From: Octopus vulgaris
Taxonomy: Eukaryota
Assembly: GCA_951406725.2 (NCBI GenBank)
Contig: OX597816.1
Coordinates: forward strand, 138,942,001-139,006,000
DNA: 64,000 bases
Direction of reading: 5' to 3'
Below, one piece after another: positions 8,617 to 59,715 of this stretch. A program made the translations under genes and the position numbers. The notes under the pieces are model-generated. The model worked only from the letters and a program-made list of their open reading frames with translations. It was not told the origin of the DNA and did not search any database. The stretch's first letter is position 1. The number at the start of each line of letters is the position of its first letter.

Positions 8617-9837
8617 TGTGTGTTTGTGTGTGTGTGTAAAGAACATTCGCCGATTAGGCAAATTAATGTAACGATCCACAAGGGTGTCTCCTGCATGAAT
8701 AACATATAGTTAAGTGCAGGTTAGCAGCCATAAATAAGATTTTTCTAATTGAAATTGTAACGCTAATGAGATAAAAAGTCATCAGCGTTAATGAAAATTT
8801 ATTCAGAAAGTGTTTAATAGTAAGGTTGCCTGACATTTCCAACCAGACAAAAATTAAATTTAAAGGGAAATATACCAAGTGAAAGAGCGAGGGAGTATGT
8901 TTATATTTGATGAGTGCCTTATGACAATTTCACTCACATCTCGATTATATGAAACATTTTCATCTAAGCTTATTCTGCAGAATAGCTTAGAACACCCATG
9001 GATGGTGGCCCGCAATTAATTACATAATCTTGCAGAGAGTACGTTTGAGAATATTTCCAATGCCATTATTTTTAATTTTATTTTCACTGAACAATATGAT
9101 ATTCATACATAACCAAAAAGAAAACTATTCCTATTGAAAGTTCAGAAATTTTGGAAGCACCCAGTCGACTTTGTGTCGCTGAATTTGTCCGGAGTGATCG
9201 TTATAGATAGCAAAAGTTCAACATCACTCATCTCCCATCATCATCATTGTCGTTGTCGTCATCATCATCATCATCATCGTCGTCATGCCACTCTCTATTC
9301 CCCACTTTTTCACACAGTTTCCAATGCAACGCTTTTGCCACCTCATCGTGATACCACAACTGATATCGGTTTTAGGCAAGTCGACGGCATTCATTCTCAA
9401 TATCGACAATCATTTTTTACAAATCCATTATAAATTCACTTCAATGGATACATTTGATAACTTAACTTAACATTTCTAAGTTTGGCCCTCCAGTTTCTCG
9501 CCAAAGCTTGGTCTTGCGCTGCAAGTATGTTTCTTTAACTAGCCCCCAACTATGTTCTCCAGCAATTTCAGTTGTGGCCACATGCAATTGATTATATAGT
9601 CCCTTGTTGCATACTACTTCACTATATCCTTCATGTACTTCTCGTTTTGTTCTTTTCTAGTTTTCCTGCTTTCAATATGCCTTCATCTCTAACTACCACT
9701 ATCAAGGGTTTCACGTTTTGGGTTAGATATCTCAGTAAGTTCCCATGTTCAATATACACGCAGTCTTCCACACTTATCAGTCCCCTTCCTCCTATTCCTC
9801 TCTTCGTGTTTAGACGATCATTTTTGTTGTTATCATA

Positions 9838-9886
<49 letters not shown>

Positions 9887-10541
9887 TGTTGTTGTTGTTG
9901 TTCATCTCTGTAAAGTGCTGACTGAGCTATGAAACTATATACCGTTATGTGCAGTAGTTTGTATGATGATGGATTGTTGAACAGTATGAATTGAAGACGG
10001 CGATGTAAGATAATTCAAGCGGAGAAAATTGTCTTTGTACATCTGCAACAGAAACAAGCAGTAATCTGTCATATCAGCAATAATTTGATAGTTTACGGAA
10101 AGTATAACTGCATAGGTTTTTATTACTGTTTTTATGAAGTAGTACGGAGAAGAGTGGTGAGTGGCAGAATTAGTTGATTACTGAACTGACTTCTTGCTTT
10201 ATTTAGTTACATCATTCTACGTTCTGAGTTCAAATTCCCTGAGATCAACATCGTCATGTTTCATTCTGGTTGTGATAAATTAAGTAGAAGTAATTCACAG
10301 TCAATTAGGCTTTCAATGGTGTATTTGCTCTAAGTATGATACACAGATTACCATTTTAAACTAGTACTGATTCTACCGCATATAACGAATTTTTATTGTA
10401 ACATCAGTGATTTTTCAGTAACTGTTTTTCTATATCAGTAGCAGCGGATTTTGTCTCAGCATGCGATTCCCAGCAAATACTTGCTACTGAGAAAACTCAA
10501 AGAGATAGAAATGCGCATTTAGCCATGCTACCACCGTTGCT

Positions 10542-23871: not shown

Positions 23872-23908
<37 letters not shown>

Positions 23909-24133
23909 CTTTATTTAAAGCAGCAGAAAATTCAACAAAATCTGTTACTCTGAGTTTCTCGTTGCCGTTCATCAGACAGTTATTCTAGCAAAAACTGTCT
24001 GATGAACGGCAACGAGAAACTCAGAGTAACAGATTTTGTTGAATTTTCTGCTGCTTTAAATAAAGCATATTACTCTACCACTGGTATTTGAGTACTCTTT
24101 TTTCCACCTTGTTTCACATTTATGTGTTTACTC

Positions 24134-24136
<3 letters not shown>
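23909..24136 (+). mobile_element. Short HHR-bearing insert in (TA)n with perfect 73-bp inverted arms plus 3' tail
   Basis: 23909-23981 is the exact reverse complement of 23993-24065 (11-nt spacer); unique tail to ~24136; (TA)n on both sides. Confidence 0.85.
23995..24032 (+). ncRNA. Minimal type I hammerhead ribozyme (mirror copy on minus 23942-23979)
   Basis: ctgt-CTGATGA-a-cg(gcaa)cg-a-GAAA-ctcagag-TA-acag; canonical core, GUA site after 24028, self-complementary helix III. Confidence 0.8.
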
Positions 24137-24191
<55 letters not shown>

Positions 24192-25145
24192 AGAGTAAAA
24201 ACATTGATATTAATTAAATTAATATCAACTTAAACCAATAGCTTAGCATATTGAAAAAAATCTGAAGATTCAAAAAATTATATTACATATAAGAGGAATG
24301 ACCACTAGATGGACTCCTAATATGCTAAATGTAGTCCCTATACGGCCTGACCACTAAGAAAAATTGTTCTCAAGAAAATTCGGAAAACGCTAGAACGTAA
24401 AGCGAGCAAAACATATGAAAAGATACAAATATAATGATTAGTCACATACCAGATTTCATTGTTACCATTTACATTACGTAAATGTCTGCAGATCATCTGT
24501 GCGACCGTCATAGAAAATATAAATTGCAGAACTATATACGGAACGTCCTGACGAGAGAGAACATGCACACAGTTCTATCAATTATATATTTACCCGACAT
24601 TATATATTTACCTAATATTAGGCGTCCACCTAGTGGTCATTCCTATTATATTCATGTAATATAATTTTCTGAATCTTCAGATTTTTTTTCAATATGCTAG
24701 GCCACTGGTTTAAATTGATATTAATTTAATAAATATCAATTTTTTACCCTTATTATTTAAATTTAAATTACCATGTTCTCTAATCGGCAGGCTTCGATGC
24801 GGAAAATTATTTTCTTCAGAGTCATTTCCGGCTTCGGCGCGCCAAATCGAAGACATTTGAAATGTACCCCCAAATATAATTGATAGAACTGTACGCATGT
24901 TCTCTCTCGTCAGGACGTCTCGTATATAGTTCTACAATTTATATTTTCTATGACGGTCGCACTGATGATTTGCAGACATTTATGTAATGTAAATGGTAGC
25001 AATGAAACCTGGTATGTGACTAATTATTACATTTTGTATCTTTTCATTTGTCTTGCACGCTTTACGTTCTAGCCTTTGCCGAATTTTCTTGAGAACAATT
25101 TTTCTTAGTGGTCAGACAACATGGGGTCTACATTTAGCATATTAA
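24192..25145 (+). mobile_element. Retrozyme-like / PLE-derived non-autonomous element with A-B-A'-C-B' architecture
   Basis: ~24195-24330 is inverted at ~24606-24745 and ~24320-24585 is inverted at ~24872-25145; homologous to 55795-56733. Confidence 0.75.
24956..25020 (+). ncRNA. Type I hammerhead ribozyme (mutated inverted copy on minus 24441-24505)
   Basis: gtcgca-CTGATGA-t-ttgc..cattta/taaatg..gcaa-t-GAAA-cctgg-TA-tgtgac; 6-bp stem I, intact core, GUA site. Confidence 0.85.
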
Positions 25146-25322
25146 AGAGACTGATAGAATCCAGACTTTCAAAAACAGAAACAAAAATGAAAGTACCGTT
25201 TTTGAAAGTCTGGATTGTATCAGTTTCTTTTGCCAAACATCTAACTTACATCGATGTAAACTCACCGACACAAGTTGTCAAGCAGTAGGTGGGGAACAAA
25301 CACAGACACACATCAATACGCA

Positions 25323-43547: not shown

Positions 43548-44444
43548 TTGGACCATCCCATAAATAACGCGGTTTTTTAAACTTAAGCTGCTCAAGCTAC
43601 TCGCAGTAGTTCTCCTTTGTTATCGTTTGGTTTGGGTTTAAAAGTTCAAAGTGGACGAAGCCTTTCGTATCCCACCAAACAGATAACAACACCTTACGTC
43701 GGTGAAGACCTTCTTTAGTCTACTAGGGTGCCGGTGTTTCTCCGTTTCCTACCCACTGTCTTCAGCGCTTGACATCTTTATAGAGAACCCATTTCTCGTC
43801 ATCAGTCACTATTCAGCCTAAAAAAAGTCCATTCGTGAGACGTGACAGCAAAGAAGAGCACACAAACTCTCTGCGCGCGATAAGACTCGGAAAGTTTGTG
43901 AGGAACCTATTGACTCAATTTTCTGACTTTTCCGATGTCATGCAGGTGTTGGTTGAATGGTTGAATGACCATAGCCAAGCCCTCTGCTAGATCCTCAACA
44001 GTTACGATGGGATTTTGTTCCACCAGGGTTTGCAAGACGTCCTCGTCGAGCTCTACAGATTTTCCAGGACGAGGCTCGTCTTCTAGGCTGTAGTTCCCCG
44101 ACTCGGAATTTCTGGAACCATTGTTGACACTGGCTTATGCTTATTATCTGATCACCATATACTGCATTTATTTCCCTCGCACATTTCGTTGCGTTGTTGC
44201 CTTTATTGAACTCATAAGGCAAAATATGCCGAATATGCTCCTTTGTCACTTCCATTACAGCTTTGAAAAAATAACTGTTAAGATCGAACTGCATGCTTCA
44301 AAACTTGCACAGAGAATAAGCACAAAGTAAAATTATTACCTGCTTTTATAGCAAGTTGACGCAGGTAGTTTATCCCGTTCCCCTCCGACATTTAGTTCAT
44401 GCAATTGAAGAAAAAAAAAACGCATTATTTATGGGATGACCCAA
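43548..44444 (-). mobile_element. Internally deleted mariner element with both TIRs and TA TSD
   Basis: ta-ttggaccatcccataaataacgc vs gcattatttatgggatgacccaa-ta; MEVTKEHIRHILPYEFNKGNNA..WFQKFR mariner HTH; frameshifted. Confidence 0.93.
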
Positions 44445-45830: not shown

Positions 45831-45906
45831 ATAAATATTAGGGAATGAATCCAAAATTACAGGGAAAAATCAGATTTAGGGTTAATCCAATTTTATAGTA
45901 AAATAT

Positions 45907-46228
45907 TATATAATATAATTCGAGACAAAACCACTATTTTAAAACCAAACAAGAAAAGACTTAATCAATACATAAAATTTTAATATAAATTAAATAAACC
46001 GCCACAACAATTGTTTCATGTCTGCTACCGACAATCTTCAGGTGGATTTTCGATCTTCTAATCAGTATCAAAATTTGATACTGATTAGAAGATCGAAAAT
46101 CCACCTGAAGATTGTCGGTAGCAGACATGAAACAATTGTTGTGGCGGTTTATTTAATTTATATTAAAATTTTATGTATTGATTAAGTCTTTTCTTGTTTG
46201 GTTTTAAAATAGTGGTTTTGTCTCGAAT

Positions 46229-46239
<11 letters not shown>
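45907..46239. repeat. Perfect palindrome, 166-bp arms centred on 46073, with unique tail 45826-45906
   Basis: Arms are reverse complements with a single unpaired central base; embedded in (TA)n. Confidence 0.92.
46101..46144 (+). ncRNA. Minimal type I hammerhead ribozyme (mirror copy on minus 46002-46045)
   Basis: ccac-CTGAAGA-t-tgtc(ggtagca)gaca-t-GAAA-caattg-TT-gtgg. Confidence 0.85.
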
Positions 46240-56091: not shown

Positions 56092-56733
56092 TCAAATTAT
56101 ATTCAGATAAGAGAGGAAAGCCACTGAGAGGTTTCCTTACATGCGGAAAATGGACGTCAAATTTTTTAATCACGGAAAATGATTTCTCATTTGGCGTCTA
56201 CTTTCAACATGTAAGGAAACCACTTAGTGGCTTTCCTCTTATCTTATATATTTGAATATAATTTTCAGTCCTTGGACATTTTTTGTACGCATGCTGGCCA
56301 CTGGTATTAATTGTTATTTTTTAATAATAATTTTTACTCTTAGTATTTTTAAATATTTTAGCTCTCGAGTCGGGTAATTCACTGCTAATTTATTCTAGCT
56401 TGGCGCGTTGGTTGAAGACATTTGAATTGAACTCATGATGTATAATGGTGGAACTGTATACGCACGTATGTCCTTTCACGGAGATGGAGTGTATTCGAGT
56501 TCTATTAATATGTGTCCCCAGCGGATTCCACTGAAGATCCACGGATAGTTGTTTCATTGTTAATGGTGTAACTTCGAAGTATGGAATTAACTGGTCGTTT
56601 TATATTTTTTCATAGTCTTGCACGAGTACATCCAATGCGTCGTTAAATGAGAACGCATTTTATCGTGGTTAGACGATTTGACATCTACTTTCAGCATGTA
56701 AGGAAACCACCACTTAGTGACTTTCCTCTTATA
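55795..56733 (+). mobile_element. Second copy of the retrozyme-like partial-tandem, 5'-inverted element
   Basis: Direct repeat at 56189 and 56676 (487-bp period); 55795-56195 (split by (TA)n) is the inverted copy across the monomer junction. Confidence 0.75.
56525..56587 (+). ncRNA. Type I hammerhead motif with one core substitution
   Basis: attcca-CTGAAGA-t-cca..tgg-t-GTAA(for GAAA)-cttcgaag-TA-tggaat. Confidence 0.7.
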
Positions 56734-57648: not shown

Positions 57649-59084
57649 CACACACATAAATGCAACTATAATTCTTATCTAACCTGAATTTTATTTTCTT
57701 TATACAACTAAGGCAGCTACTGGTAGTTCTATTTTAACAATCGAGAAGACTCCCTGTCGAAATCTTAACCCATTTGTGTATATTTCTGTTTGATTCTATG
57801 TGTGTATGTGAGTGTGTGTGTGTGTGCGTGCGTAATCGATAGTGTGCACGTGTGTATTTGTGAGTGCGTGATTTTGTGTGCTTCAGAGTGCCTATATACA
57901 TGCTTCTGTAGACAATCTCACACAAATATATCTATCAGTAAACATTCAACTTTACACTGCCATATATAAAGAAACATACAGATACACACGTACACTTAAT
58001 AGATAAATACATACGTATACAATTATATGATATATTGTGTTATTTCAACTTTGCTTTTCATCATGCCGCTATTTGGTTGATAAATCACGTAACTTTCCTT
58101 TCATTATTACTTCGTCTATCGCTAACTTCCTCCCCTTATAATTTTACTCGTCATCCCCCTTTTCTTGTATTCTTTTCTTGCTGTCAATGTCGATTTTTAT
58201 TTCTGCTTTGGTTATTGACCAACCACTTAAAAAAAAATCAAGTTTTACTGTGAACGTCCTATTTCTTACACACGCAAACACACAGAAATACACACACACA
58301 CAAACTGAGACGATGACCCGACTACTTAACTCAATCTAATTCTTCATTCCTTCTCTCCCCTGTCATACCGTCTTCCGATGTTTATTTCGTCATTATTCTT
58401 TGAACTAACTACTTAGATTTTCTGTAGACTTTACTATATTCACACGCCATATAACAATCACTAACACCATGCCATCAAGAAATAGCAGTACAGTTTATCC
58501 CAAATTACATTCTACCACAACATAAAAAATATAAGCTACGATATGTGTATATGTATGCATTGTATGCACGTATCTCCTAGATGTAACATTGAACTACATT
58601 AAGTGGTGAGACTTCAGTTCGGCAATTCAGGAGTTGTGTGTTGAGTGGATTCACCCTTTAGTTACCATAACTCCCAGGTCCGTTCTGACCCGGAATGACA
58701 GTAGCTCTGTGTGTGTTATAGTGGCCATCAACTCAAATTTGAGTTGACAGTCACTATAACACACACTTTCACATTTTGTGTTACAACTTTTAAATATACC
58801 ATAACAACTTTCACGTTGAGACATGACTAATAGTTTTGATAGTACAGGATTTGCTTTTATACTTTTGTGACAAATGTTGCGACAGAATTCCATTAAGGAT
58901 CTCTTCATCAGGTGTTGCATCCTTGTGCATGTGTCTAAAACTGATTTTCCACTCGGTAGTGTATGTGCACACATTTGCTCGTAATGAACTGTATTGCTGC
59001 AGTTGAGCTGTTGAAGTTGTGTGCATATAAGCTTTCCATCTTGACCACCTGACACGTGACACTTCATGAACGACAAGACAGACA

Positions 59085-59715
59085 TTTAGAAGTTCAATAT
59101 GACCATCATCAATGCATGTGAGTTCCCTCTTATTTCTTTACTGCCCACAAGGGGCTACACACAGAGGGGATAAACAAGGACAGACAAACGGATTAAGTCG
59201 ATTATATCGACCCCAGTGCGTAACTAGTACTTATTTAATCGACGCCGAAAGGATGAAAGGCAAAGTCGACCTCGGCGGAATTTGAACTCAGAACGTAGAG
59301 ACAGACGAAATACCGCTAAGTATTTGGCCCGGCGTGCTAACGTTTCTGCCAGAGCTTTCTTGAAAGTGTCTTAATCCAAGATAAGTGTTTGCCTTCATAA
59401 ACTTGAGCCAAAGATAAAGAGGCTAGGTAAAGACACACCATGCGGTGGAAACACCTTTCCTCACCAGTTCCAAAGAAAGCCAATGTCATTACATTCTCTG
59501 GGAAAGCTTCAGTTTTTTTTAATGTAAACTTTTGACTAACTTCAAAATGGCCACATCATCAATGGAGAGTACTATGCAGTATCGCAGCGATGATGACGTC
59601 ATATCTACTGTTGGTGATTTTTTTTTTTTTGCTCAATAAGATGAAAGCTTATCCATCAATGGGATACAAGCATTGAACAACGATGGAAACAGTGTGTGAA
59701 AAGTAAACGTCTTGG
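59085..59715 (+). mobile_element. Mariner transposase remnant interrupted by SINE A (59130-59352)
   Basis: MRWKHLSSPVPKKA..SGK; NGHIINGEYYA; YRSDDDVISTVGDFF; NGIQAL..RWKQCV are mariner catalytic-domain/C-terminal motifs. Confidence 0.7.

Follow-up and report, generated by a model that had tools for sequence, protein, structure and literature searches.

An inverted pair of truncated ends in an octopus (TA)n tract, in all likelihood the 3′ stub of a Penelope-like element

Positions 23909-24136 of a 64-kb stretch of Octopus vulgaris DNA (hereafter the window) in all likelihood represent the 3′ stub of a high-copy Penelope-like element (PLE), probably of the Hydra clade, lodged in a (TA)n tract and composed of two 5′-truncated, head-to-head copies that would have arisen as separately primed cDNAs. 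What was observed is the anatomy of the unit, the high copy number of its family, the scattered inversion points of other copies, and the microhomology or few extra bases at their junctions; the steps of formation are inferred.

The original prediction had described exact 73-bp arms around an 11-nt spacer, and this was confirmed: 23909-23981 is an exact inverted repeat of 23993-24065 (arms 73 nt, spacer 11 nt). Besides this unit, the only non-simple exact inverted repeat in the 64-kb window was 45907-46072 / 46074-46239; a third inverted-repeat match (26804) was discarded as AT filler. The features of the unit, and of the two other hammerhead-bearing units in the window, are as follows.

23872-23908, no strand: left (TA)n target tract, with a TT break at 23900-23901
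23909-23981, minus strand: inverted 5′-truncated copy of the element end, equal to sense 23993-24065, tail-less, its 3′ end abutting (TA)n
23942-23979, minus strand: mirror hammerhead without the outer 5′ strand of helix I; core begins at 23975, cleavage predicted after 23946
23982-23992, plus strand: spacer of 11 nt, extra 5′ sequence of the longer copy
23982-24136, plus strand: longer 5′-truncated sense copy, 155 nt including the tail
23988-24039, plus strand: type I hammerhead, core at 23999, predicted cleavage after 24028
24059-24064, plus strand: AATAAA, immediately 5′ of the short 3′ end
24066-24136, plus strand: one-sided tail of 71 nt, at whose end other copies also terminate, followed by (TA)n
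24071-24094, plus strand: bulged tail hairpin, 43 nt past the cleavage site
24137-24188, no strand: right (TA)26 target tract, common to this unit and the adjoining older unit
24189-25144, no strand: third, older inverted hammerhead unit, arms 87-91% alike, core at +24962, mirror decayed
45831-46239, no strand: second hammerhead family, exact arms of 166 nt, 1-nt spacer, left tail of ~76 nt

The spacer (23982-23992) is family sequence, since contigs of other copies extend upstream of 23982. The tail was found on the right side only and (TA)n at both outer sides of 23909-24136, within which a target-site duplication is unreadable, a limit also noted for PLEs (PMC8557442). An AATAAA followed by a tail had been noted previously; both stand (plus strand, 24059-24064, and the 71-nt right tail), with no poly(A) after the hexamer at 24059-24064. 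A role as polyadenylation signal was rejected, because poly(A) is absent and because the motif sits within a small AT-rich hairpin. A 29-codon frame (24002-24091) opening at an ATG in the ribozyme core had no Pfam match and is within chance expectation. Separately, the tail holds a 52-nt GT...AG stretch with a pyrimidine tract (24084-24135) that resembles a very short intron and may be due to chance; it ends 1 nt short of the insertion end, and the 29 codons from the ATG at 24002 run up to it. (TA)n tracts of at least 16 nt occur 50 times in the window, totalling 2020 nt, and three unrelated hammerhead-bearing units lie inside such tracts within 22 kb.

The type I hammerhead core occupies 23999-24028 on the plus strand and its mirror 23975-23946 on the minus strand. 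A hammerhead descriptor matched five times in the window, whereas 100 block-wise dinucleotide shuffles averaged 0.05 matches with no shuffle exceeding 1; all five matches fell in the three inverted units (two in the 23909 unit, two in the 45907 unit and one in 24189-25144). In the 23909 unit, helix I comprises 10 bp with a single mismatch and extends into the spacer (23988-23993 pairing with 24034-24039), helix II has 2 bp with an A.A at its base and a GCAA loop, and helix III is a 9-nt palindrome. The placement of the ribozyme within 2 nt of the arm start proved accurate, as the core-proximal strand of helix I begins at 23995, 2 nt into the arm. Rfam hammerhead families gave no match to this unit at the gathering threshold or at E<=10, and the ribozyme call therefore rests on the descriptor, the pairing and published PLE motifs. 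The core is intact. For a single ribozyme copy the predicted active fold (-4.9 kcal/mol) was less stable than a misfold (-9.6), and the predicted cofold of two copies was a double hammerhead (-21.4 kcal/mol versus -9.6 for one copy). The two ribozymes of the unit lie on opposite strands, ~24 nt apart, and an RNA transcribed through the unit should, by prediction, fold into a 73-bp hairpin (~-135 kcal/mol) masking both, so that their acting as a pair appears unlikely.

The base of helix II was mismatched in all three ribozyme families (A.A at 24006/24015, U.U at 46112/46128 and U.U at 24969/25003). At position 24015, the family of the 23909 unit shows A, G or T, of which T alone would pair. A share of the family contigs carries a T-to-C change at core position 24000 (seen at mirror position 23974); as this falls in the catalytic core, part of the family likely has an inactive ribozyme.

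The 45907 unit contains a hammerhead core at 46105 with predicted cleavage after 46140, together with its mirror. The earlier view that this palindrome has the same layout with unrelated sequence was borne out, the best local match between the two units being 15 columns. The plus copy of 24189-25144 resembles a partial tandem of ~530 nt (end piece, 124-nt middle, ribozyme piece), and in the minus copy the core is decayed. The end piece of this unit has a 72% match at 56220-56348, and a separate hairpin at 25144-25230 (33-nt arms, 94%; 21-nt loop) begins where the plus copy breaks off. Elsewhere, 43998-44297 (minus strand) encodes a mariner (Mos1-type) transposase HTH fragment (Pfam PF17906, E 1e-20). 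A frame at 9631-10014 (minus strand) resembles a remnant of an RTE-type LINE C-terminus and one at 58651-59085 (minus strand) a remnant of a hAT-like transposase; neither had a Pfam match.

The 23909 unit belongs to an abundant family. At least half of its sampled words were present in 20 of the 24 listed sequencing runs (10 studies), and contigs aligned to 23897-24144 numbered 1511, 6795 and 5255 in three DNA runs and 462 in a fourth, most of them 90-99% alike. The high copy number is read from these contig counts, summed depth being no measure of it. The loose contig ends listed beyond 23901 and 24143 were TA repeats, indicating that both outer ends are recurrent family ends. Both arms have a minority letter at 24033, where G accounts for 54-77% of the depth in three DNA runs; this is consistent with a single template or source locus for the two arms. 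No listed piece spanned the exact junction of the 23909 unit (best 12/16 words in four runs, with contigs that drop rare variants), no RNA run among those listed contained words of the unit, and two pattern scans of metagenome contigs gave 0 matches to longer copies.

We conclude that 23909-24136 is very probably the 3′ end of a PLE. Insertions of this class are described as frequently 5′-truncated, as abutting at their 5′ end an inverted copy that is likewise 5′-truncated, and as bearing a tail on one of the two sides (PMC8557442); their repeats are described as head-to-head, the junction forming a palindrome (PMC3846280, Arkhipova et al. 2013), and their hammerheads show a palindromic helix III, a dimeric fold and some opposite-strand pairs (PMC4209133). 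The 23909 unit combines a hammerhead with a palindromic helix III, variable truncation with an inverted copy, and a tail at one end. It shares the head-to-head layout, junction palindrome and one-sided tail of the general PLE insertion unit, although it is only 228 nt long and has no ORF; the PLE tail is usually quoted as 30-40 nt, shorter than the 71 nt here and the ~76 nt of the 45907 unit. The suggestion that a shared mechanism generates head-to-head units in (TA)n is thus supported by the published structure of PLEs, and is hence already known. Type I topology, a palindromic helix III and a predicted dimer are likewise shared with the hammerheads of Cervera and De la Pena 2014 (PMC4209133), whereas the consensus given there has G10.1-C11.1 at the base of helix II in place of the A.A mismatch. 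A Pfam search of 119 window frames returned only the mariner HTH and one weak chance match; neither RT nor GIY-YIG sequence was detected, in keeping with the truncation of the copy. Since no RT-endonuclease gene was found linked to the unit, membership is deduced from the non-coding end.

Assignment to the Hydra clade is probable. The unit is inserted in (TA)n, a preference that we counted by eye for 26 of 27 Hydra families in the supplement of PMC8557442, and by-eye comparison indicates a hammerhead and a 3′ end of the clade type. In that source, helix III reads ACTC-N-GAGT in 5 of 26 hammerhead rows (by eye), one of them identical to that of the 23909 unit; Hydra-2_Amil also resembles the unit in helix I (CTGT/ACAG) and in cleavage after GUA (by eye); and U.U stands at the helix II base in 14 of 26 rows (by eye), as in the two other families of the window. 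Three of six Hydra consensus ends stop 36-47 nt past the cleavage site (37-42 nt for the short end here), and three run 88-116 nt past it (108 nt for the tail end here). Those three longer ends carry a bulged hairpin, then ACT and a T-rich run, 38-47 nt past the site (43 here), with a G-C outer pair where the 23909 tail has A-U (by eye). The tail-hairpin motif had a single match in the window, and one of 300 shuffles also contained it, a comparison that is no independent test because the motif was drawn post hoc; the hairpin is absent from the other two hammerhead families of the window, and the words 'hairpin' and 'stem-loop' are absent from the main text of PMC8557442.

The kin listed for this clade (Craig et al. 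2021, PMC8557442) are Hydra-2_Amil, Hydra-2_Ajap, Hydra-1_Crog, Penelope-3_HM and Penelope-13_HM, the last of which is noted to have an inverted 5′-truncated copy, as here. The 23909 unit differs from the clade in that no ORF was seen, helix II is shorter with an A.A base, and the tail is 71 nt. It also differs in its ribozyme from Hydra-1_Obim, the only cephalopod Hydra family listed in PMC8557442; both a Hydra family (PMC8557442) and recently active PLEs (PMC13282606) have been reported in octopuses. The (TA)n-targeting Neptune elements may offer an alternative to the Hydra clade. The Naiad clade was rejected, as Naiad lacks a canonical hammerhead and the 23909 unit has the complete three-helix motif. 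Our search for further literature on the Hydra clade, thin in subscription journals, returned nothing relevant beyond the papers cited.

Because the reference itself is a palindrome, fold-back copies were seen as joints between its arms. Sixty joints were counted and 15 listed; 14 of these and 7 further listed rows gave 21 junctions, the count leaving out an opposite-strand joint (23992/24058), a go-back row (24014->23981) and four duplicate rows, with 45 + 12 rows lying beyond the listing. The sample is biased, in that a fold-back is visible only if its junction lies inside the reference, and near-identical ones appear as small indels. Across the 21 listed junctions, the 42 5′ ends (sense coordinates) were spread over 23982-24058, i.e. 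77 nt, through and beyond the ribozyme, and in 16 of the 21 neither core start was retained. The original prediction that inversion is tied to the 5′ edge of the ribozyme is not supported by these positions, and centring just 5′ of a hammerhead is no rule of the family. The two 5′ ends of a junction were offset by 5-67 nt (median 16; 21 listed junctions). Microhomology of 3-5 nt was present in 5 of the 10 insert-free listed junctions, compared with 2.3% expected, and 11 of the 21 listed junctions had 1-13 letters between their sides, some of which are family variants or upstream family sequence. The junction of the 23909 copy itself has neither microhomology nor extra bases.

To account for these junctions we favour a two-primer route, to which we assign roughly even odds. 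The GIY-YIG nuclease of the element would cut both (TA)n strands; one cut end would prime ~37-42 nt past the hammerhead cleavage site and the other 71 nt further on, such that two priming sites 71 nt apart would produce the one-sided tail. Both cDNAs would terminate early, often in or near the ribozyme helices, and their ends would be fused by end joining, giving identical arms with a spacer contributed by the longer-running cDNA. Such a route would leave the 3′ ends facing outward and would account for central microhomology. The template RNA would have been uncut here, because both arms span the cleavage site, and the hammerhead is carried along with the element end. The resulting unit is predicted to be dead, having no ORF and a read-through RNA that would collapse into the 73-bp hairpin.

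One clear junction and one probable junction support priming from both sides. At joint 23927->24058, the tail-less arm extends further 5′ than the tail arm, a polarity opposite to that of the 23909 copy; with 27 letters on its shorter side, this joint extends leftward to the TA flank and rightward to the tail. Joint 23929->24055 probably has the same reversed polarity. A later deletion at the centre of a palindrome could give the same polarity as these two-primer junctions.

Biochemical precedent comes from the anole PLE, which in vitro cleaves AT-rich DNA on both strands and extends each of them (PMC11167929, Frangieh et al. 2024); two internal RNA start sites bound its tail, ribozyme cleavage is dispensable and the protein is a predicted dimer (PMC11167929). 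This Anolis Poseidon PLE therefore resembles the proposal in its AT-rich target, use of both strands, two start sites and uncut RNA template, although it belongs to a different clade and PMC11167929 is silent on the origin of inverted copies. A literature search, thin in subscription journals, for a two-primer model of PLE inversion returned nothing relevant beyond the papers cited.

The leading alternative, which we consider possible yet clearly less probable, is a snap-back in which a single cDNA folds over at a microhomology and serves as its own template (or, following a proposal in PMC3846280, primes itself on an antisense RNA). The identity of the arms, down to shared minority letters at 24033 and 24015, the excess of microhomology and the small median offset of 16 nt between 5′ ends (the latter two among the listed junctions) are all consistent with snap-back. 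Moreover, snap-back from a tail-primed cDNA predicts the spacer on the tail-bearing arm, which is true of the 23909 copy. However, it cannot yield a longer tail-less arm, as at 23927->24058 and probably 23929->24055, unless the centre was later deleted, and the short end would need a separate step.

Somewhat less favoured still is the reading that the family is retrozyme-like, a non-autonomous tandem unit that lacks an ORF and relies on a PLE protein acting in trans for its movement; this changes the source RNA and keeps the insertion mechanism the same. The lack of a linked ORF (119 window frames) and the very high copy number agree with it, the adjoining 24616-25144 resembles a partial tandem of ~530 nt, and animal retrozymes have been reported as non-autonomous PLE derivatives (bioRxiv 10.64898/2026.07.22.740005). 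Non-LTR retrozymes (PMC7229834, Cervera and De la Pena 2020) are, like the 23909 unit, short and non-coding with a type I hammerhead, and U.U at the helix II base is described in one axolotl retrozyme family (PMC7229834). In contrast to the head-to-tail tandems of retrozymes (PMC7229834), the 23909 unit is head-to-head, truncated and tailed. Furthermore, the 23909 locus has no tandem or direct repeat of the unit, the loose ends listed past the tail run into (TA)n or unrelated flank with no next unit, and the 3′ end resembles those of autonomous Hydra-clade elements.

It is highly improbable that the point of inversion is set by the ribozyme, which would make the unit a head-to-head ribozyme palindrome of defined form. 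In favour of this reading, two complete cores are retained in each of the window's two perfect palindromes, and among the 42 5′ ends of the 21 listed junctions, 13 fall within 24032-24039, 4-11 nt past the cleavage site (scan-corrected p ~0.009). However, only 21 junctions were visible, with ends over 77 nt; 18 of the 42 ends fall on the cleavage site or 5′ of it, and just one is within 1 nt of the start of the cleavage product. The distance from inversion to cleavage also varies, being 36/47 nt in the 23909 unit and 67 nt in the 45907 unit. The 24032-24039 cluster coincides with a T run and with the helix I 3′ strand, and for 7 of the 13 ends the partner arm begins at or 5′ of the cleavage site; this combination favours pausing of the reverse transcriptase or microhomology as likelier explanations of the cluster than the use of cleaved RNA. 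Palindromes that keep two whole cores are the subset recognisable to a reader.

A fold-back chimera from library preparation or assembly is very remote. The arms are 100% identical, as a chimera would have them, though most family contigs differ from the 23909 copy by 1-10%. Against this, the unit has unique flanks on both sides, outer ends that are family termini in (TA)n and a tail on one side only; junctions of this class also occur in contigs of two separate studies (X14, X5), and an older unit with diverged arms adjoins. A MITE or microRNA precursor, suggested by terminal inverted sequence in TA and by generic microRNA-family scores below gathering, can be dismissed, as the variable centres of different copies exclude it, the outer ends differ by the tail, a hammerhead is present, and microRNA models score any long perfect hairpin.

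Returning to the proposal of a PLE stub built from two separately primed cDNAs, what the present analysis adds to published work is small: a tail hairpin in three published Hydra ends, a clear junction that speaks against snap-back, and a modest excess of 5′ ends at helix I. A more speculative extension, which we regard as tentative, is that the bulged tail hairpin of the Hydra clade, kept from corals, sea cucumbers and copepods to the octopus host, holds a dimeric protein in place between two priming sites; the two (TA)n ends would then each prime, and thousands of stubs would record where the reverse transcriptase stops, with a pause at helix I.

The 23909 unit is in itself ordinary, a dead stub of a known class of retrotransposon. 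Such stubs inflate genome-wide hammerhead counts and also score on microRNA models. The origin of the inverted copies and tails of PLEs is described as an open question (PMC8557442), and in a young, high-copy family with short, junction-bearing stubs, counting could separate the two-primer route from snap-back. If the tail hairpin is indeed conserved and the stubs do record reverse transcriptase stops, the inverted-plus-tail structure of PLEs would become testable from one genome.
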